Shown: positions 6,553 through 39,619 of the stretch, one piece after another
Numbering within the stretch: position 1 is the stretch's first letter
Layout of the letters: each line of letters starts with the position of its first letter
Origin: Acidobacteriota bacterium
Lineage (GTDB): Bacteria; Acidobacteriota; Blastocatellia; RBC074
DNA: 64,000 bases
NCBI GenBank assembly: GCA_037439425.1
Contig: JBBIWA010000014.1
Location: 29,781-93,780 of the forward strand
Reading direction: 5' to 3'
Program-made: the position numbers and the translations under genes
The notes under the pieces: generated by a model
The model's input: only the letters and a program-made list of their open reading frames with translations
What the model was told of the DNA's origin: nothing
The model's database searches: none

Positions 6553-8184
6553 ATGACGACGATGATGAACACTCCGTTAACGATGCCAGTATTGATGGAT
6601 CGCGGGCCACTGCTGGCGCCCGAAGTTGAGATCGTCTCGAAGATGCGCGATCGGATCCACCGCTACACTTACGCTGAGTTGGGCCAGCGCGCGCGGCAAC
6701 TGGCCAAGGCGCTGACTAAACTCGGCGTCAAACAAGGCGACCGCGTGGCAACCTTTGCCTGGAACAGCTACCGGCATCTGGAGATCTATTACGCCGTGCC
6801 GTGCATGGGCGCGGTGCTGCATACGCTCAACCTCCGGCTCTCGGTCAGCGATCTCGAATACATCATCAATCACGCTGAAGATTCGGTCATCTGCGTGGAT
6901 CAAGAGCTGCTGCCGCTGCTGGAGAAGCTGGCCGGAAAGATTCCCACCGTCAAGCATTACATCGTGATGAGCGAGACAGAAGATTTTCAGACCAGCCTGG
7001 CTCCGGCGCACAGCTATGAAGCGTTGCTGGCAGCAGAGAAGCCTGATTTCACCTGGCCCACACTTGATGAGAATGCGCCGATGGGTTTGTGCTACACCAG
7101 CGGCACGACCGGCCACCCCAAGGGCGTGATGTATACGCATCGCTCGAACTATCTGCACACAGTCAGCTCCTCACTGCCCGATGCCTTGGGGCTGAGCCGC
7201 CACGACACGGTGATGGCTGTGGTGCCGATGTTTCATGCTAACGCCTGGGGCTTACCTTACATCTGCTGTATGAACGGCATCAAGCAGGTCTTCCCTGGCC
7301 CGACGATGGATGGAGCTTCGGTCTGTCAACTGCTGCAAGACGAAAAAGTCACCTTCACGGCAGGCGTGCCCACGATCTGGTTGGGGGCGATGGCCGAGTT
7401 GCAAGCCAACCCTGGCAAGTATGATATCTCGAGTTTGCGCGCGATGCTGTGTGGCGGTTCGGCTCCACCACGCCCCATGATCGATTGGTTTGAGACCAAT
7501 CTTGGCATCGAGTTCATTCACGCCTGGGGCATGACCGAAACCAGCCCTCTGGGCTGCGTCAATCACCTCAAACCGAAGATGAAAGACTGGCCTCACGAGA
7601 AGAAGCTGGATGTCAAACAGCGCGCCGGCATCGTCGCCCCTGGCCTTGAGATTCGCATCGTAGATGATGCCGGCAATGAGGTGCCGCACGATGGCACCAC
7701 CATGGGGCGCTTGCTGATTCGCGGCCCGTGGATCGCCAGCGCCTACTATAAAGACCCGGCGCCGGAGAAGTTCCCTGACGGATGGCTCGACACAGGTGAC
7801 ATCGCTACGCTCGATGCAGAGGGCTATATGGCAATTGCCGACCGCTCGAAGGACCTGGTCAAAAGCGGCGGCGAGTGGATCTCGTCAGTGGACCTGGAGA
7901 ACGCTATTATGGCCATCCCCGGCGTAGCTGAAGCTGCGGTCATTGCAGTCCATCATCCGAAATGGCAAGAGCGCCCGCTCGCCTGCGTCGTTCTCAAGCC
8001 GGGAGCCAGTGTGACCAAGCAGCAAATCCTCGATCACCTGGCCGGCCAATTCGCCAAGTGGTGGCTGCCTGATGATGTAGTCTTCATTGACGCGATCCCG
8101 AAGACCAGTGTCGGCAAGTTCGACAAGAAACTGCTGCGCCAACAATACGCCGATTACAAGCTGCCCACAGCCGCGGGAGCTTGA
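6553..8184 (+). CDS. AMP-dependent synthetase/ligase (long-chain or medium-chain fatty-acid--CoA ligase)
   Basis: AMP-binding motif [25 protein letters not shown] and a C-terminal K in [21 protein letters not shown]. Confidence 0.9.
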
Positions 8185-29426: not shown

Positions 29427-30029
29427 ATGTCTATCGCGATCATTGATTACGGGGTCGGGAACCTGCGCAGCGTGGAGAAAGCATTCACCTCGCAAGGCAT
29501 CCCGGCAGTGGTAAGCAGCGACGAGAAAGTTCTGCGTGCGGCAGACAAGTTGGTGCTGCCCGGCGTAGGCGCATTCGCAGCGTGCATGCAGGGGCTGCAA
29601 GAGCGCGGCTTCGATGAGCTGGTGATCGCAGCCGCTAACTCAGGCAAGCCCATCCTCGGGCTGTGCGTTGGCTTGCAGATGCTCTTTGATGAAGGGCAAG
29701 AGTTCGGCCTGCATCGCGGGCTGGGCCTGTTGCCGGGCCGTGTGGTGCGCTTTCCTGAAGGCGTGCGCGTGCCGCACGTCGGCTGGAATCAGGTCGCTAT
29801 CAAACGCCCTCATCCGATCTTCCGCGACCTGCCTGATCAATCATTCTTCTACTTTGTGCACTCCTACTACGTTGAACCGGTGGACGAAACGTGTGTGCTC
29901 GGTGAAACCGAGTATGAATCTTGCTTCGCTTCCATCTGCAGTCGCGGCAGCGTGATCGGTGTTCAGTTCCATCCAGAGAAGAGCCAAACGGCAGGATTGA
30001 AGTTACTCAGAAATTTTGCCGAGCTGTGA
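29427..30029 (+). CDS. hisH: Imidazole glycerol phosphate synthase, glutamine amidotransferase subunit
   Basis: MSIAIIDYGVGNLRSVEKAF N-terminus, catalytic GLCVGLQ Cys and a C-terminal HPEKS triad region. Confidence 0.9.
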   Translation: MSIAIIDYGVGNLRSVEKAFTSQGIPAVVSSDEKVLRAADKLVLPGVGAFAACMQGLQERGFDELVIAAANSGKPILGLCVGLQMLFDEGQEFGLHRGLGLLPGRVVRFPEGVRVPHVGWNQVAIKRPHPIFRDLPDQSFFYFVHSYYVEPVDETCVLGETEYESCFASICSRGSVIGVQFHPEKSQTAGLKLLRNFAEL

Positions 30030-30048
30030 CTGGCAAGAGAGCTTTGCT

Positions 30049-31035
30049 ATGACAAAGAGCAGCCTGATGCTCCCAGTCTTGCTTGCCCTCCTAGCTGGCT
30101 TATTCGGCGCGCAAAAGCCAGAGAGAGAGCCAGGCAGATTGTTTCCTGTTATTCAGAATGACCTGTGGGGCTATATAGATCGAACGGGGAAGATCGTCAT
30201 CCAACCGCAATTCGACAGCGCTGGGGACTTCTCCGAAGGGCTGGGGCGCGTCTCTCTTGATGGCCAGTGGGGTTATGTAGACAGAAGCGGGCGGATCGCT
30301 ATCAAACCACAGTTTGATGACTATGCCGGCGACTTTTCCGGCGGCTTGGCGCTGGTACGAATTGGCGGCAAGTACGGTTACATTGATCAGACAGGGCAGC
30401 TCGTTATCAAACCGCAATTCGATGAGGCACTGAACTTTTCTGAACACTTTGCCCCTGTCCGGATCGGCTCCAAGTGGGGCTACATTGCCAAAACCGGCGG
30501 TGTGATCTTCCAGCCACAGTTTGACCGTGCTGAAGTCTTCTCCGAAGCTCTGGCAGCGGTACAAATTGAGGGTAAAGAAGGCTACCTGGATAAAACGGGG
30601 AAGCTTGCCATCAAACCTCAGTTTGATTTTGCTGGGAATTTCTCCGAAGCGCTGGCCCCGGTGCAGATCGGTGATCGGTGGGGCTATATTGACCGGACCG
30701 GAAGAATCGTCATTGGGCCTCAGTTTGACGACGCGGGAAATTTTTCCGAAGCGTTGGCCTCAGTGCAGATCGGCGGCAAGTATGGCTACATTAACAAAGC
30801 GGGGCAAAGAGTCATCGCTCCGCAATTTGATCTTGCCGAGGCCTTTTCCGAAGGTCTGGCACGCGTGCACAGGGGCGACCAATGGGGCTACATTGATAAG
30901 AGAGGAAAGATCCTCATCGAGCCACAATTTGATCAGGCGGGCGACTTCTCCGGAGGGCTGGCACGTGTGGAGCTGGATGACAAGGTGGGCTACATTGACC
31001 AAAGAGGAAAGTTTGTGTGGCCGCTCTCAAACTAG
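30049..31035 (+). CDS. WG-repeat (KWG/WGYID) beta-propeller-like secreted protein, about 10 tandem repeats of about 30 aa
   Basis: Signal peptide, then the repeating unit xQFDxAxxFSEGLAxVxxxxKWGYIDxTGKxVIxP about 10 times. Confidence 0.75.
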   Translation: MTKSSLMLPVLLALLAGLFGAQKPEREPGRLFPVIQNDLWGYIDRTGKIVIQPQFDSAGDFSEGLGRVSLDGQWGYVDRSGRIAIKPQFDDYAGDFSGGLALVRIGGKYGYIDQTGQLVIKPQFDEALNFSEHFAPVRIGSKWGYIAKTGGVIFQPQFDRAEVFSEALAAVQIEGKEGYLDKTGKLAIKPQFDFAGNFSEALAPVQIGDRWGYIDRTGRIVIGPQFDDAGNFSEALASVQIGGKYGYINKAGQRVIAPQFDLAEAFSEGLARVHRGDQWGYIDKRGKILIEPQFDQAGDFSGGLARVELDDKVGYIDQRGKFVWPLSN

Positions 31036-31101: not shown

Positions 31102-31530
31102 CTAGGGCTGTAGCGGCGCCTCTTCAGAAAGGTGTGCCACCCCTTCCATCTCGATCAAGGCCTCGTTATTGAAAAGGCTCTTGACCTCGAAGAAAGCCAT
31201 CGCCGGGTAATGATCGCCAAAGTAAGTGCGATGGATTTTGCCCAGTTCGCGCAGGTGAGCCAGATAAGCAGCGCGATCCGTCACAAAGATGTTGAGCTTG
31301 ACGATGTTGGTTAATCGGCCGCCGGCTGCTTCAACCACAGCTTTGAGGTTCTTGATCACCTGTTCATACTGCGCTACCAGATCGCCCGGTGAGGCGATCT
31401 TTCCTTCCCGGTCGCTACCATCTTGCCCGGCCAGAAACAACAATCGTCCAGGACCGCTAACTAGAATGCCGTGACTAAATCCGCGCGGCGGCACCAGCTC
31501 TGATGGATTGATCACTCGTTTGTCACTCAT
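31102..31530 (-). CDS. RidA/YjgF family reactive-intermediate deaminase
   Basis: About 140 aa with RidA-family blocks (NIVKLNIFVTD, ...MEGVAHL). The start overlaps the crotonase stop (ATGA). Confidence 0.8.
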   Translation of the reverse strand: MSDKRVINPSELVPPRGFSHGILVSGPGRLLFLAGQDGSDREGKIASPGDLVAQYEQVIKNLKAVVEAAGGRLTNIVKLNIFVTDRAAYLAHLRELGKIHRTYFGDHYPAMAFFEVKSLFNNEALIEMEGVAHLSEEAPLQP

Positions 31531-32321
31531 CGTCCTGTAAACTCCGGGGTTCGTTTCTCCTGGTAAGCCTCATAAAAGCGGCGATGATCTTCGCCCATTA
31601 ACAACAATGCCTGCGCTTGCGCTTCAGCTTCGATAGCCGAAGCTAAATCCATGCTCCATTCGTTGTTGACCATGATCTTAGTCATCGAAAGCGCCAGCGC
31701 CGGCCCTTTCACCAACCGCGCTGCCCATTCGCGCGTTGTTTCCATTAATGCCTCGTGCGCGACCACGCGATTGACCAGGCCGTAGCGCTCGGCTGTGACA
31801 GCATCTATCGTGTCACCTAGCAGCAACAATTCCATCGCCCGGCCTGTGCCCACAACTCGCGGCAACAGATAAGCCGCGCCCATGTCGGCTCCGGTCAGTC
31901 CCACTTTAGTGAAGAGGAAAGCAAATTTGGCTTGCTCTGAAGCCAGGCGCAGATCAGCAGCCAGCGCGATGACTGCCCCAGCGCCAGCGGCCATGCCGTT
32001 CACAGCGGCAATGATAGGTTTATCGAGCGTGCGCATATTCTGAACCACCGCTCCGGTCAGGCGCGCAAACTCCAGATGCCCGCGCATATCGCGCGCGAGC
32101 AACTCGCCGATGATTTTGTGGACATCGCCGCCCGCACAAAATGCTTTGCCCCGCCCAGTAACAATGAGCACTTTGACCTGCTCATCGCGGCGCAACTCGG
32201 CAAGCAGATCGCGAAACTGCGCGTAGATGTCAAAGGTCAAAGCATTGAGCACGTCGGGGCGATTGAAAGTCACCGTCGCCACTTGATCTTGAACTTCGTA
32301 CAGGAAATCGTCAGCCATCAC
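31527..32321 (-). CDS. Enoyl-CoA hydratase/isomerase (crotonase) family protein
   Basis: VTFNRPDVLNALT...GKAFCAGGDV oxyanion-hole motif. Length about 260 aa. Confidence 0.85.
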   Translation of the reverse strand: MMADDFLYEVQDQVATVTFNRPDVLNALTFDIYAQFRDLLAELRRDEQVKVLIVTGRGKAFCAGGDVHKIIGELLARDMRGHLEFARLTGAVVQNMRTLDKPIIAAVNGMAAGAGAVIALAADLRLASEQAKFAFLFTKVGLTGADMGAAYLLPRVVGTGRAMELLLLGDTIDAVTAERYGLVNRVVAHEALMETTREWAARLVKGPALALSMTKIMVNNEWSMDLASAIEAEAQAQALLLMGEDHRRFYEAYQEKRTPEFTGR

Positions 32322-32425
32322 TCAATCCTCAATTCATCTCTTGGGGAGACCCACATCTTGCGTGTTTATCTTCAGTCAATGACCTGCTAGGGAAAAGCAG
32401 GCACGCTCCCCGGCGTGCCTCTCAA

Positions 32426-33898
32426 TCAAAGGTTCCACCGCGGCGCCACGAGGCGACGTTTGCCATCCTCGCTTAAGGTGATCCCGGGTTCGTCAAGCTG
32501 CTTGCGATCCCACAGCTTGCAGGTCACCTGCTTGTGCAACTGATCAAGCGCTTCGCAGTAATTGGTGAATTCGCAGCGCCGGATCTCAGCTCCGCGCCCG
32601 AGCTTCATCTTCAAAAACCAGTCCGGGTCGGCCAGTGACTGACGCGCAGCGGCGATGATATCAGCTTCACCGCGACGCAGGATGCCTTCAGCTAGTTCAA
32701 AAGTGGCAATGCCGCCTGAAGTCACTACGGGAGTTGAGTAGCCTGCCTCATTCACTGCGCGCTTGATTGCGGCTGCTAGCGGGACGTTGCGCCCGAATGG
32801 CCCTCGTTGATCCGAGTTCACCGTCGGCATGCACTCATACCCGCTGCGGCCCGTGTAGGGATAAACGGCCTGGCCGACCTTCGGTTGTCTGGCATCCTCG
32901 AACTTGCCGCCTTTGGAAATCGAAAGGTAGTCGAAGCCCGCGCGCGCAAACTCAAGGCCGAAGTAGACAGCCTCTTCGATGCGATTGCCGCCTTCGATGA
33001 CCTCATCACCAAGAAAGCGCACTCCCACCACGTAGTCATCGCCGACACGCTCACGCACCGCGCGATATACCTCTAGCGGCAGCCGCGCGCGGTTTTCGCA
33101 AGGCCCGCCATACCCATCAGGCCGCGTGTTGAGCGCACTCAAAAACGAAGCCATGGTGTAAGCATGTGCGTAGTGCAGCTCAACACCATCAAAGCCAGCT
33201 TCGCGCGCGCGCCAGGCCGCAGCGGCGAAAATCTCAGGTAAGACTTGTGGCAGCTCACGAATGTGAGGCAGATGCATGTCCGTCACGCGCTCGCGGTAGC
33301 CATAGCGCAGCGCTTCAAGCTCGCGTTCATCGAGCAGCCGATCGTGCCACTCATCCGGCGCGGCTTTGAGAAAAGTGCGGATCTCTGCTTCATCCGCTTC
33401 GAGCCAGCGCGCCTCCTGCGTTATTTCAGCCAGCTTATGCCGATGCCGCTCGGTCACCGTCAGGAAGCGGTCGAAGTATTTGTCCTTTGGCGGCCGGCGC
33501 TTGACCGCGAGAAAATCAATGATCTGAATGAAGAGGCGCGTTTGCCCGCCGCTTTCTCGGCGCACGGTTTCGACCAGTTCACGCAATCCTGGAATGAAAC
33601 GATCGTGCCCGATGCGCAGCAGCGGCCCGCTCGGAATATCGCGGATGCCGGTCGCTTCGACCACAATGGCTCCCGGCTGCCCCTGAGCAAAACGGGCATA
33701 CCACTCGAGGATGTGACGCGTGACCTGTCCCTCTTCTGTGGCGCGCCACGGCACCATTGCTGGAACCCACGTGCGGCTTTCCAGCCAGATTGGTCCAATT
33801 TGAATCGGACTGAAGAGAAGCGAAGTGGCCGCTTCTTCCGCCGTTGGCCAACGTGCTTCAGGAAGCGAATACCGGATTGGATTCTCAGGGTGCCACAT
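32426..33898 (-). CDS. NADH:flavin oxidoreductase / Old Yellow Enzyme family (TIM-barrel FMN reductase) with an N-terminal extension
   Basis: IQIGPIWLESRTWVPAMVPW...GAIVVEATGIRDIPSGPLLRIGHDRFIPGLRELV...RLFIQIIDF has the typical OYE N-terminal blocks. The C-terminal GGIATFELAEGILRRGEADIIAAAR is the OYE phosphate/FMN-binding strand. Confidence 0.8.
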   Translation of the reverse strand: MWHPENPIRYSLPEARWPTAEEAATSLLFSPIQIGPIWLESRTWVPAMVPWRATEEGQVTRHILEWYARFAQGQPGAIVVEATGIRDIPSGPLLRIGHDRFIPGLRELVETVRRESGGQTRLFIQIIDFLAVKRRPPKDKYFDRFLTVTERHRHKLAEITQEARWLEADEAEIRTFLKAAPDEWHDRLLDERELEALRYGYRERVTDMHLPHIRELPQVLPEIFAAAAWRAREAGFDGVELHYAHAYTMASFLSALNTRPDGYGGPCENRARLPLEVYRAVRERVGDDYVVGVRFLGDEVIEGGNRIEEAVYFGLEFARAGFDYLSISKGGKFEDARQPKVGQAVYPYTGRSGYECMPTVNSDQRGPFGRNVPLAAAIKRAVNEAGYSTPVVTSGGIATFELAEGILRRGEADIIAAARQSLADPDWFLKMKLGRGAEIRRCEFTNYCEALDQLHKQVTCKLWDRKQLDEPGITLSEDGKRRLVAPRWNL

Positions 33899-34302
33899 TC
33901 TTGGAGAGAGAGATCAGGGGCAGTCGATAACCACCACACCCGCCAGGTTGCTTCCCTGCCCCTCTTCGCGATCTGTCGTTTCTAACGCCGAGGCCTCTCG
34001 GACTCCCATTACAATTCCCCCTGCTGGAGTTATAGCGGAGTTCAATCGGACGCCCAGAAGAAGCAACCAAGTAGCTGACCACCGGCTACGGATGAGTGGT
34101 GACTAAGGTCAAGATCAAATTGCTGCTGGCCCATAAATCTCTCCCTCACCCTCAGGGGACGGCTTTCAGGCTTCAGTGGTCAGTAAGAGGCAGACTTTCC
34201 GAACGCACAATCAAAACTCTGTAAGTCGACGACAGCTGTCAACCAACAGCCAGGAACACTGCAGTCTTAATCCATCGCTAGCACTAGAAACTGCGCGGAT
34301 TA

Positions 34303-35445
34303 TCATTCAGCTTCTTTGTTGGCCAACCAGCGCTCATAAGCGGCAATAAATTCGGGGTCCCGCTTCTTCAAATTCTCATACGTGATCCGGCCACTGCGAG
34401 TCATGATCTTGTAGGCGAAAGGCAATGGATCCAGATGCAGCTCTTCGTGGATATTCTCTAGCAGCAGGAGGCTGGAAAGAGCAGCCTCTTGCAAGCTCTC
34501 GACCACTGGTCTTCTCACTCTCTCGAACTCACTGAGCGCGGCCGCGACTGTTGAGTGCTGGGCAAAACAACCGGCCAGCGCGATGGCATCTTCCAGCGCC
34601 AGCTTGGTTCCTGAACCAATCGAGAAATGAGCTGTATGCAGGGCGTCGCCCAAGAGCACCACATTTTCGTGGCTCCAACGCTGATTCTTCACCAGCGTAA
34701 AGTTGAGCCACCTGACATAGTTCTTTGAAAGCAGCGGACAGCCGCCAAGGTCCTTCCTGAAGACTTCGGCCAGATAAAGGCAAGTCTCCTGCTCAGACAT
34801 GCACTCAAATCCCGCCTGCGCCCAGGTCTGCTCGCTACATTCTACGATAAAAGTGCTCCTCGTCTGATCGAACTTGTAGGAATGGGCGATGAAGAGACCA
34901 GCTTCGTGCTTGCGGAAAGTGAGCCTCAGGCCGTGGAACAACCGAGGCGTCCCTAGCCAGATGTACTTGTTCTTGCGCACATCCAGCACCGGCTCGAAGA
35001 ATTGGCTGTAGGTGCGCCGCACCAGACTGTTGACGCCATCAGCCCCAACCAGCAGATCACAATCGGCCAGCTCACCGATCTCATTTACGTTGGTATGAAA
35101 GCGAAGATCAACGCCCAGCTCCCGGCATCGTTGGTGCAGAATGTTGAGAAACTTGATACGAGCGATCCCGGAAAACCGATTGCCTCGGATGCTCACCTTC
35201 TGATCCTGGTGGACGATCTCTACGTTGTCCCAGATCTGGCAACTGTTGATGATCTGCCAGTAGGAGGGATAGTCGCTCTCTTTGAGGTAAGAAAAGGTTT
35301 GATCCGAAAAGACGATGCCCCAACCAAAGGTATCGTTGGGGCCATCGCGCTCCAGAATCGTGATCTCGTGGGCCGGATTGAGTTGCTTGATGAGAATGGC
35401 GAAATACAATCCGGCCGGCCCGCCACCGATGATATTGATCTTCAT
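34303..35445 (-). CDS. Class A FAD-dependent monooxygenase (salicylate / 2-aminobenzoyl-CoA monooxygenase-like)
   Basis: N-terminal Rossmann motif MKINIIGGGPAGLYFA, DG motif and C-terminal VVLLGDALHTAHFSIGSGTKLALEDA (GD...G.G motif). Confidence 0.8.
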   Translation of the reverse strand: MKINIIGGGPAGLYFAILIKQLNPAHEITILERDGPNDTFGWGIVFSDQTFSYLKESDYPSYWQIINSCQIWDNVEIVHQDQKVSIRGNRFSGIARIKFLNILHQRCRELGVDLRFHTNVNEIGELADCDLLVGADGVNSLVRRTYSQFFEPVLDVRKNKYIWLGTPRLFHGLRLTFRKHEAGLFIAHSYKFDQTRSTFIVECSEQTWAQAGFECMSEQETCLYLAEVFRKDLGGCPLLSKNYVRWLNFTLVKNQRWSHENVVLLGDALHTAHFSIGSGTKLALEDAIALAGCFAQHSTVAAALSEFERVRRPVVESLQEAALSSLLLLENIHEELHLDPLPFAYKIMTRSGRITYENLKKRDPEFIAAYERWLANKEAE

Positions 35446-35488: not shown

Positions 35489-38266
<2,778 letters not shown>

Positions 38267-38612
38267 CATAAAGAGCCTCCTTGTTAGTTGTCGGGGATGA
38301 GCCTGGCAGATAAGCTTTCGGCAACTGCACACCACAGAAAGTGACCTTGTCAGAGTATAAGCACCGAGTGGGATTCTATGATTGCGCTCGCAGATAAGTC
38401 AATGATGATGGCAGTTCTCAAACAGGCCCGGCCTTGATCTTGCCAGGGCAGGTACGCGTCTTGCGCGCTAGACTTGAGACCAGATCAACTCATCCGGCAG
38501 GGGCCGAGCGAACTCTTGTGGGCCAAAGAGCTATGCTGCTTGATCCACTCCCCTCTCCCACTACTCTCAGCGCGCCTCCCGCGCGAGTACCCAGGGAGGC
38601 TGGAAATCTATC

Positions 38613-38640
38613 TTGAGCTTCGCTCGTTTCTCGCTATAAT
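38613..38640 (+). promoter_or_regulatory. Candidate sigma70-type promoter (TTGAGC - 16 nt - TATAAT) upstream of the carbonic anhydrase gene
   Basis: Hexamers read directly with 16-nt spacing. A stem-loop caggcatcaggcccccatgcctg follows in the 5' leader. Confidence 0.4.
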
Positions 38641-38740
38641 TCAGCCCGCCCCAGGCATCAGGCCCCCATGCCTGAAACAACCCACCTGCTTTGACAGACG
38701 ACAACCCTTCTACTCCAAATCAGCGAAAAGGAAATTCGAG

Positions 38741-39619
38741 ATGAAAGCAAATCACTTTGATAGAACTGTCACACGGTTGTTTCAAGCTCTGGCCATCGGG
38801 CTGATTCTGGCTCTGGGGATTGCTTCGATCAGTTGCAGTTCTGAGAAATCTGCGGAAGCTGAAGAATCACACGAGGAAGAAGAATTCTCAAAGTCCAGCA
38901 AGAAAAAGTCTAGAGCTTACGACGAAGACGAAGATCAAAGCGAGGAGGCGGAAGACTCGCTTGACAAGACGGCAAGTCATAAATCAGATGACGCAGGCAA
39001 AAACTCGCACGCCGCCTCAGGGCATTCTTCGCCCAAGCCACCCATGTCGCCTGAACAAGCTTTGGCGCGCTTGAAAGAAGGCAATGAGAACTTCCTCAAA
39101 GGAATGATCAGTTTTGAGCACCTGGCCGAGGCGCATCGCACTGCTCTGGCTGGTGGCCAACGCCCCTTTGCGATGGTGCTCTCCTGCGCTGACTCGCGCG
39201 TGCCGCCAGAGCAGGTCTTCGCTCAAGGGCTGGGCGATATTTTCACCGTCCGTGTGGCAGGCAATATTGCCGAGCCAGCGACGATTGCCAGTCTCGAATA
39301 CGCTGCTGCGCATCTGGGAACTCCGTTGCTGGTCATTATGGGCCATACTGAATGCGGCGCAGTCAAGGCCGCTATGGCCGGAGCCAGCGACACACCTAGC
39401 ATCACCCAACTGGTCAAAGCCATTCAGCCCGCAGTCGCGAAGTATTCAAAGACTGGTGACACAGCATCTGCAGTGCGAGCCAATGTCAGTCATGCCCACG
39501 AGGAACTGCTACGCCAAAGCAAACTGCTCAGCGACCTGGTAGACGAAAAGAGACTTAAGGTGGTGGAAGCAGTCTATAACTTAAAGACCGGACGGGTCAA
39601 GTTTGAGTCAGGCCAGTAG
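38741..39619 (+). CDS. Beta-class carbonic anhydrase with lipoprotein signal and an acidic low-complexity linker
   Basis: Signal/lipobox ...GIASISCSS. An acidic/Ser/Lys-rich linker. Beta-CA zinc ligands CADSRVPPE and HTECGAV. Confidence 0.85.
   Translation: MKANHFDRTVTRLFQALAIGLILALGIASISCSSEKSAEAEESHEEEEFSKSSKKKSRAYDEDEDQSEEAEDSLDKTASHKSDDAGKNSHAASGHSSPKPPMSPEQALARLKEGNENFLKGMISFEHLAEAHRTALAGGQRPFAMVLSCADSRVPPEQVFAQGLGDIFTVRVAGNIAEPATIASLEYAAAHLGTPLLVIMGHTECGAVKAAMAGASDTPSITQLVKAIQPAVAKYSKTGDTASAVRANVSHAHEELLRQSKLLSDLVDEKRLKVVEAVYNLKTGRVKFESGQ

Follow-up and report, generated by a model that had tools for sequence, protein, structure and literature searches.

The question raised by this locus is whether two neighbouring genes can do as separate proteins what the fused anthraniloyl-CoA monooxygenase/reductase (ACMR) does as one. 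The window, a stretch of 64 kb from an Acidobacteriota bacterium of the class Blastocatellia (contig JBBIWA010000014.1, positions 29,781 to 93,780), carries five co-directional open reading frames (ORFs) on its minus strand: an M14 peptidase, a class A FAD monooxygenase (MO; 34303..35445, 380 amino acids, aa), an Old Yellow Enzyme (OYE) family flavoprotein of 490 aa (OYE-490; 32426..33898), a crotonase-superfamily protein (31527..32321, 264 aa) and a Rid-superfamily protein (31102..31530, 142 aa). An earlier interpretation made from the DNA letters (hereafter the sequence-only reading) had described the MO and OYE genes as co-directional neighbours, as the ORF list bears out, and had likened them to the two halves of a split ACMR within a degradation module for CoA-thioesters of aminoaromatic compounds. 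Our analysis indicates that the window probably encodes the core of an aerobic anthranilate CoA-thioester pathway typical of Blastocatellia, in which the two activities of ACMR reside on two proteins, and that these proteins are not the pieces of a recently divided gene.

The identity of the hydroxylase is the first element of this argument. Profile searches of the window proteins against Pfam and NCBIfam placed the MO among the class A flavoprotein monooxygenases (PF01494, 48.5 bits, cutoff 22), and the motifs of this class, GGGPAG, GADG (as GADGVNS) and GDALHTAHFSIGSGTKLA, can be read in its translation (the segment with the GD motif is also shown as GDALHTAHFSIGSG). Residues 1-378 align to positions 1-388 of the 768 positions of NCBIfam model NF006101 with 471 bits (E 6e-141). 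This family is named 'bifunctional salicylyl-CoA 5-hydroxylase/oxidoreductase' by NCBI and includes Streptomyces SdgC; it also holds the Azoarcus 2-aminobenzoyl-CoA monooxygenase/reductase. Homology of the MO to the N-terminal half of the fused enzyme, as claimed earlier, was borne out over the full length of the protein, also by a scan of 1.8 billion representatives in which fused proteins of 650-800 aa were 40-48% identical to the MO. Several of these fused matches exceed the NF006101 cutoff (e.g. P0154, at 1123 bits). The next-best NCBIfam model was VioD (268 bits). Among solved structures, VioD (protodeoxyviolaceinate monooxygenase; PDB 3c4a, 8gqr) matches the MO best (E 1.7e-66) and has the same class A fold, but its model scores below that of the ACMR N-half, and the context of the MO is CoA-ester catabolism, not violacein biosynthesis. 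UbiH/Coq6-type models reached at most 45 bits, and we rejected the identity as a hydroxylase of that type, which the sequence-only reading had named as the outcome that would speak against it. We predict that the MO is an anthraniloyl-CoA (2-aminobenzoyl-CoA) 5-hydroxylase.

The closest homologues of the MO number in the thousands; they come from Blastocatellia and other Acidobacteriota, are standalone, measure about 380 aa, share 68-94% identity with the MO and bear the label 'anthraniloyl-CoA monooxygenase' in IMG. In a neighbour-joining (NJ) tree, midpoint-rooted and built without bootstrap, standalone and fused MOs formed two separate clades with the window MO in the standalone one; therefore, the window MO is not a recently detached half. 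Phylogenetic placement, which had been suggested as a check, assigns the MO to the clade of standalone proteins. A 921-aa protein (P0184) consists of a monooxygenase of the standalone clade fused to a benzoate-CoA-ligase-family domain (TIGR02262, 531 bits). This Rosetta-stone link between hydroxylase and aryl-CoA formation is independent evidence for an aryl-CoA substrate. A different fusion occurs in P0107 (515 aa, Candidatus Rokubacteria), in which a close MO homologue (70% identity) bears an additional F420-dependent PPOX-class domain (PF01243/PF12900) that may represent another reductase partner joined to the same hydroxylase.

The reductase has a different history. OYE-490 belongs to PF00724 (139 bits), displays the OYE fold in its AlphaFold2 (AF2) model and in a Foldseek search, and encodes the ene-reductase site H242-x2-H245-x-Y247, which is invariant in 30 orthologues and aligns with NemA and with the C-terminal halves of the fused proteins. 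As with ACMR, the MO is accompanied by an OYE-family reductase whose site reads H-x-x-H-x-Y, and we predict that this protein is the ring reductase partner. It is not, however, the counterpart of the fused C-half that it had been taken for. OYE-490 scored only 106 bits with the NamA/YqjM model, with which fused C-halves reached 257-302 bits, and identity to a fused C-half was 33% over 216 aa only. In an NJ tree, proteins of the OYE-490 type formed one clade (97% bootstrap) outside the group of fused C-halves. Relative to solved OYEs there are two insertions, at residues ~138-199 and ~339-368, of which the former is confidently helical in the AF2 model and the latter bears an invariant Cys356. 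Directly after the barrel follows a cysteine motif, C442-x5-C448-x11-C460, which aligns with ligands 1, 3 and 4 of the 4Fe-4S cluster of E. coli FadH and its relatives, and which is absent from the fused C-halves in our alignment. The reductase of the fused family is YqjM/NamA-like and devoid of this motif, and OYE-490 is not of that type.

The position of the second cluster cysteine of FadH is occupied by Thr or Ser in OYE-490. Cys356 could substitute for it, and electrons may be delivered by an Fe-S cluster bound at the motif; the AF2 model has a pLDDT of 72 and is poor exactly in the Cys-bearing segments. Other features also link OYE-490 to the FadH-type Fe-S OYEs (PDB 1ps9; BaiCD; the OYEs of mycofactocin systems; 2-naphthoyl-CoA reductase, PDB 6qkg). 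All have the OYE TIM barrel and act, or are predicted to act, on CoA thioesters, and the best NCBIfam models for OYE-490 are BaiCD and the mycofactocin-system FadH/OYE enzyme. Foldseek comparison with the PDB returned OYEs in general, 1ps9 and 6qkg included, and did not discriminate between OYE subclasses. In the tree, OYE-490 joins FadH-like enzymes at 60% bootstrap; because deep placements in this small NJ tree have supports of 48-60%, a position as sister to FadH-like enzymes is tentative. OYE-490 also differs from this group. FadH-type enzymes have ~650-680 aa, whereas OYE-490 (all 120 best homologues have 485-516 aa) ends ~30 residues past its Cys motif and therefore lacks the C-terminal FAD and NAD(P)H-binding domains of FadH. 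In addition, OYE-490 keeps the His/His/Tyr site that is lost in FadH, and carries the helical insertion of ~60 aa. It is conserved at 77-95% and has lineage-specific insertions.

Each protein was also compared by tblastn with 72,556 plasmids. MO homologues occurred on 323 plasmids, and the annotated ones that we viewed were mostly fused enzymes. The best plasmid matches of OYE-490 were a single Limnohabitans orthologue (55% identity) and then FadH-like enzymes. The former, on the betaproteobacterial plasmid pTEGF4 of Limnohabitans sp. TEGF004 (locus L091, 10001-11488), is a full-length orthologue with all four cysteines.

The pairing of the two genes is conserved in other genomes, as the sequence-only reading had proposed to check. 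When one genome per species was scanned, OYE-490 proved to be encoded at 591 loci or more, and our tblastn census covers the best 80 of these, almost all from Blastocatellia or Pyrinomonadaceae, with genes counted when they lay within 10 kb of the OYE. An MO orthologue was present at 58/80 loci, and at 39/45 of those with at least 5 kb on both flanks. The OYE is accordingly no housekeeping NADH oxidase lacking conserved synteny, the other outcome that had been named as adverse. Among the remaining neighbours were a kynureninase-like protein and the PRK08258 crotonase (48/80 loci each), Rid (46/80), an acyl-CoA dehydrogenase (ACAD; 45/80), a tryptophan 2,3-dioxygenase (TDO)-like protein (43/80) and a benzoate-CoA-ligase-family enzyme (TIGR02262, above cutoff; 42/80). 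The TDO, kynureninase and benzoate-CoA-ligase-family genes of these relatives support an amino-aromatic CoA-thioester pathway that starts from anthranilate, and with it the degradation module first suggested for the window. At L088, the model cluster from Pyrinomonadaceae, a thioesterase, an Amphi-Trp protein, the ligase, TDO and kynureninase follow each other on one strand, with the OYE divergent from them, and a second series converges on the OYE: MO, ACAD, crotonase, Rid, short-chain dehydrogenase/reductase (SDR), two more crotonases and a TetR regulator. The window proteins are 65% (MO) and 79% (OYE) identical to those of L088.

Orientation is far less constant than proximity. MO and OYE are convergent at 48/58 loci, and the co-directional MO-then-OYE layout of the window is found at the other 10/58, with gaps of 37-636 bp. 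The correspondence between gene order and the domain order of the fused enzyme thus stands for the window and is kept at those ten loci, and it fails for the 48 convergent ones. The co-directional loci of the window type have the same ligase orthologue together with a PF04199 gene (kynurenine-formamidase family), and the ligases of three of them (L008, L012 and L014) are 63-70% identical to ligases that adjoin TDO and kynureninase.

These results bear on how the two-gene arrangement arose. Members of the fused family are single polypeptides of ~760-800 aa that start with an FAD monooxygenase and end with an OYE domain, and genuine fused proteins score ~1120 bits against NF006101, for which the cutoff is 1078; the window MO and OYE reach 471 and 128 bits, respectively. 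ACMR (AbmA; EC 1.14.13.40; Azoarcus/Aromatoleum evansii) and the unfused system therefore differ in that two genes stand in place of one, that the MO falls in a separate standalone clade, that the reductase, an OYE of 490 aa, has two insertions and a FadH-like Cys motif, and that gene order and orientation are not conserved. The trees of both proteins, the OYE motifs and the variable orientation led us to reject a simple fission of the gene for the fused ACMR; a literal split was likewise not supported, given the separate clade of standalone MOs and the convergent layout of most relatives. Since the OYE was probably recruited from a lineage other than that of the fused reductase half, the system is an unfused, non-orthologous two-component version and not the result of recent gene fission. 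The fused family has variants of its own. In P0124 ('VDMAGGGLL') and P0142 ('HAGHGGL') the His/His/Tyr site is partly or wholly lost, which could leave the reductase half inactive or altered. On the megaplasmid of Ralstonia solanacearum (L005, 9001-12132), the annotated fused enzyme has 1043 aa, ~270 aa more than is typical, and the extra part is C-terminal.

The two remaining genes of the module are of the same accessory types as those in clusters of fused enzymes, which agrees with their earlier assignment as module members. The fused enzyme of Ralstonia is clustered with MarR, crotonase, thioesterase and Rid. In Roseivivax, Rid and a thioesterase lie on one side, and the fused enzyme and an SDR on the other. 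The cluster of the archaeon Haladaptatus comprises ligase, fused enzyme, Rid, ACAD, SDR and crotonase. The window thus has the crotonase and Rid of this neighbourhood, and its relatives add the benzoate-CoA-ligase-family enzyme (absent from the window, present at 42/80 related loci), SDR, thioesterase and ACAD. The window crotonase (PF00378) belongs to the PRK08258 type (NF006107, 377.2 bits, cutoff 330) and is 48% identical to the crotonase of the Ralstonia cluster; we predict that it is a hydratase or a ring-opening hydrolase of an alicyclic CoA ester. Its gene overlaps that of Rid by 4 bp, as had been noted earlier, and the ATGA can be read directly in the sequence (...CGATGAGTG...).

The Rid protein belongs to the PF01042 fold family (76 bits), but the label of RidA that it was first given had to be withdrawn, as it scores 69.7 bits against the RidA model TIGR00004 (cutoff 106.25) and displays Met at the position of the catalytic Arg105 of E. 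coli RidA. This arginine binds the substrate carboxylate and is essential to imine hydrolysis by RidA (PMC4433059). The same replacement is seen in the Rid proteins of the Ralstonia, Roseivivax and Haladaptatus fused clusters, which likewise stay under the RidA cutoff and to which the window protein is 34-51% identical, and it resembles the Rid4-7 group, arginine-less subfamilies with no known function (PMC4433059). As a speculation, Met in place of a carboxylate-binding Arg would suit a substrate whose carboxyl group is tied up as a thioester. The gene is linked to a pathway with a known enamine intermediate, and its product is predicted to be a deaminase of an enamine CoA ester, or to have another role.

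From the gene identities, homology, synteny and motif conservation described above, we infer a substrate and a series of chemical steps, together with a possible contact between MO and OYE-490 and a possible Fe-S cluster. Tryptophan would be converted into anthranilate via TDO, formamidase and kynureninase, and a benzoate-CoA-ligase-family enzyme would activate anthranilate. The MO would then hydroxylate 2-aminobenzoyl-CoA at C5 with NAD(P)H and O2, and OYE-490, with FMN and His242/His245/Tyr247, would hydrogenate the non-aromatic tautomer to 2-amino-5-oxocyclohex-1-ene-1-carbonyl-CoA, so that the predicted overall reaction, which consumes 2 NAD(P)H and O2 per 2-aminobenzoyl-CoA, is the same as that of ACMR. 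The chemistry is known from the fused enzyme, which gives off 5-hydroxyanthraniloyl-CoA under limiting NADH (PMC3534580). The arginine-less Rid would hydrolyse this enamine to the 2,5-dioxo CoA ester and ammonia, after which the PRK08258-type crotonase would hydrate the ring or open it hydrolytically, and beta-oxidation enzymes encoded elsewhere would complete the process.

A more far-reaching version of this proposal can be offered only tentatively, and with much less confidence than the pathway itself. It holds that OYE-490 is an undescribed subclass of single-domain OYEs, which combines the His/His/Tyr site with a rebuilt Fe-S site of the FadH type (Cys356/442/448/460) and a helical insertion for docking. 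The protein would have been recruited independently as the dearomatising reductase of a standalone hydroxylase, non-orthologous to the ACMR half, and its electron donor might be other than NAD(P)H. Together with Rid as enamine-CoA deaminase and the crotonase as the ring-opening enzyme, it would supply the lower steps of the main tryptophan/anthranilate route of soil Blastocatellia.

Several observations weigh against the anthranilate pathway with a two-protein ACMR. The pathway ligase, TDO and kynureninase are all missing from the 64-kb window. No TDO or kynureninase lies within 10 kb at any of the ten co-directional loci (0/10), so the link to tryptophan there rests on orthology to Pyrinomonadaceae genes and on the PF04199 neighbours; moreover, in relatives TDO and kynureninase do not reach the NCBIfam equivalog cutoffs. 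As to the pair itself, the MO is absent nearby at 6/45 fully flanked OYE-490 loci, no fusion of an MO to OYE-490 occurs among the homologues listed, and the gaps of 404 bp and 104 bp that separate MO, OYE and crotonase argue against assuming co-transcription. Rid is without the arginine on which imine hydrolysis by RidA depends (PMC4433059). Finally, the Limnohabitans plasmid orthologue of OYE-490 has no MO within 10 kb; it adjoins an NCS2 permease and a tryptophanase, beta-oxidation genes lie 6 kb off, and this context suggests that OYE-490 can work in another indole- or tryptophan-related setting.

The alternative closest to our proposal is that the MO alone releases an aromatic product (such as 5-hydroxyanthraniloyl-CoA or gentisyl-CoA), and that OYE-490 acts later and uncoupled from it in the beta-oxidation of the ring, for instance as a dienoyl-CoA reductase like FadH or a dearomatising reductase like NCR. 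The common cysteine motif and weak grouping with FadH-like Fe-S OYEs (60% bootstrap), the FadH-like plasmid matches and the presence of 1ps9 and 6qkg among the structural neighbours speak for such a role, and the convergent genes of 48/58 loci cannot form one transcription unit there. Standalone MOs without any OYE also exist, as in the Variovorax series of ligase, thioesterase and MO. Nevertheless, we consider a later-acting OYE unlikely, because the clusters offer no other candidate for the reductive half-reaction of the fused enzyme and because OYE-490 retains a His/His/Tyr site that is absent from FadH. Either case would give almost identical net chemistry, and the difference is one of coupling and not of pathway.

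Less probable again is that the substrate in the lineage of the window is another aromatic CoA ester, such as salicylyl-CoA (as in Streptomyces SdgC) or a substituted benzoyl-CoA. The name of the NCBI model, 'salicylyl-CoA 5-hydroxylase/oxidoreductase', would fit this, as would the co-directional subtype, window included, with its lack of TDO and kynureninase within 10 kb, and the M14 peptidase and his operon that surround the module in the window. Against these stand the identities of 65% and 79% to the MO and OYE of L088, which are set between kynureninase/TDO and beta-oxidation genes, and the ligase orthologue of L008, L012 and L014, which is 63-70% identical to ligases adjacent to TDO and kynureninase; a Rid-family gene, furthermore, fits naturally only with a nitrogen-bearing intermediate. 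A chance neighbourhood, with the OYE as a general NAD(P)H:flavin oxidoreductase unrelated to the MO, is highly improbable. The non-conserved 404-bp spacer and the lack of an operon-type overlap between MO and OYE are compatible with chance, but the pair is syntenic at 39/45 fully flanked loci from Blastocatellia, Pyrinomonadaceae and beyond, in two orientations, and the OYE is conserved at 77-95% with its lineage-specific insertions.

If the anthranilate pathway applies, it would have implications for the understanding of tryptophan turnover. The aerobic anthraniloyl-CoA pathway is understood only as far as the product of ACMR, and tryptophan degradation via anthraniloyl-CoA monooxygenase/reductase was omitted from a curated pathway tool for lack of knowledge (PMC9007349). 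The arginine-less Rid and the PRK08258 crotonase are candidates for the missing steps, as are ACAD, SDR and further crotonases in relatives. Because hydroxylase and reductase are separate proteins here, the two half-reactions could be studied apart. The occurrence of the module in at least 591 species-level genomes, of which the closest 80 are almost all Blastocatellia or Pyrinomonadaceae, suggests that it is probably a main route of tryptophan/anthranilate turnover in an abundant and poorly cultured soil group. None of the literature that we searched describes an unfused ACMR or the OYE-490 type. The annotation of the MO already exists in IMG, and OYE-490 is found under generic names only ('NADH:flavin oxidoreductase', '2,4-dienoyl-CoA reductase-like'). 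As a scaffold for ene-reductases that possibly includes a metal site, OYE-490 may also appeal to biocatalysis. The system as a whole would gain in interest if OYE-490 does hold a metal cluster, or if the steps of Rid and crotonase are confirmed.

The intergenic regions were analysed for regulatory elements, since a riboswitch or attenuator scan of the 404-bp spacer between MO and OYE (33899..34302, minus strand) had been suggested. No RNA element was detected. The Rfam search of the spacer gave no match at the gathering threshold or at E<=1, it folds no better than shuffled sequences (z-score +0.43), and only its last 33 bp, before the OYE start, match the closest relative (94% identical; gap of 135 bp). 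We therefore rejected a riboswitch or attenuator in the spacer, of which no repeat was found elsewhere in the window or in any relative locus compared. In the ~104-bp gap between OYE and crotonase, a GC-rich hairpin (32399..32420, minus strand; 8-bp stem with 6 GC pairs) followed by a T-rich tract (tail GCTTTTCCCT) begins 5 nt past the OYE stop. It is a possible terminator or attenuator before the crotonase, and a weak candidate because the region has nine sites with hairpin and T-tract, against 7.3 expected from shuffles.

The nearest CoA ligase in the window is the gene at 6553-8184. The observation that no ligase is adjacent to the module was accurate, and we rejected this gene as the pathway ligase, as it is of the fatty-acid / 3-(methylthio)propionyl-CoA-ligase type and shares no more than 25-27% identity with the ligase in the clusters of relatives.

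Other genes recur at the loci of relatives. In L088 (5871-6098), the Amphi-Trp protein (PF20068, 75 aa) has the anthranilate-type CoA ligase on one side and the thioesterase on the other, and it has equivalents elsewhere. Small Rv0078B and DUF6036 genes are often inserted beside the MO (9-10 of 80 loci). In several Blastocatellales loci (L001, L008, L012 and L014), a hutH gene (684 bits) lies immediately upstream of the MO, at a distance of 4 bp in L001 (6497-7996), and adjoins the PF04199 cyclase-family gene, with no evident link to the anthranilate module. This histidine ammonia-lyase was rejected as a member of the pathway, since its score exceeds the hutH equivalog cutoff and most loci do not have it.

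In the window itself, the M14 peptidase (35489..38335, minus strand, 948 aa) shares the strand of the MO and stops 43 bp before the MO start. Its M14 zinc-carboxypeptidase domain spans residues 112-243, and the residues outside it have no family match. This neighbour is retained in the 94% identical relatives L003 and L004 and absent at more distant loci. Downstream of the module, the his operon lies on the opposite strand. After hisB and hisH follows a gene (30016-31035, plus strand) that converges on the Rid gene and encodes a 339-aa protein with eight WG-containing beta repeats (PF14903, 356 bits); an unannotated gene of 328 aa is called at the equivalent position in L003. On the other side, a beta-class carbonic anhydrase is encoded at 38474-39619 on the plus strand (Pro_CA, residues 233-375), with an N-terminal extension of ~230 aa that has no confident family match; the corresponding gene call in L003 is shorter, at 319 aa.

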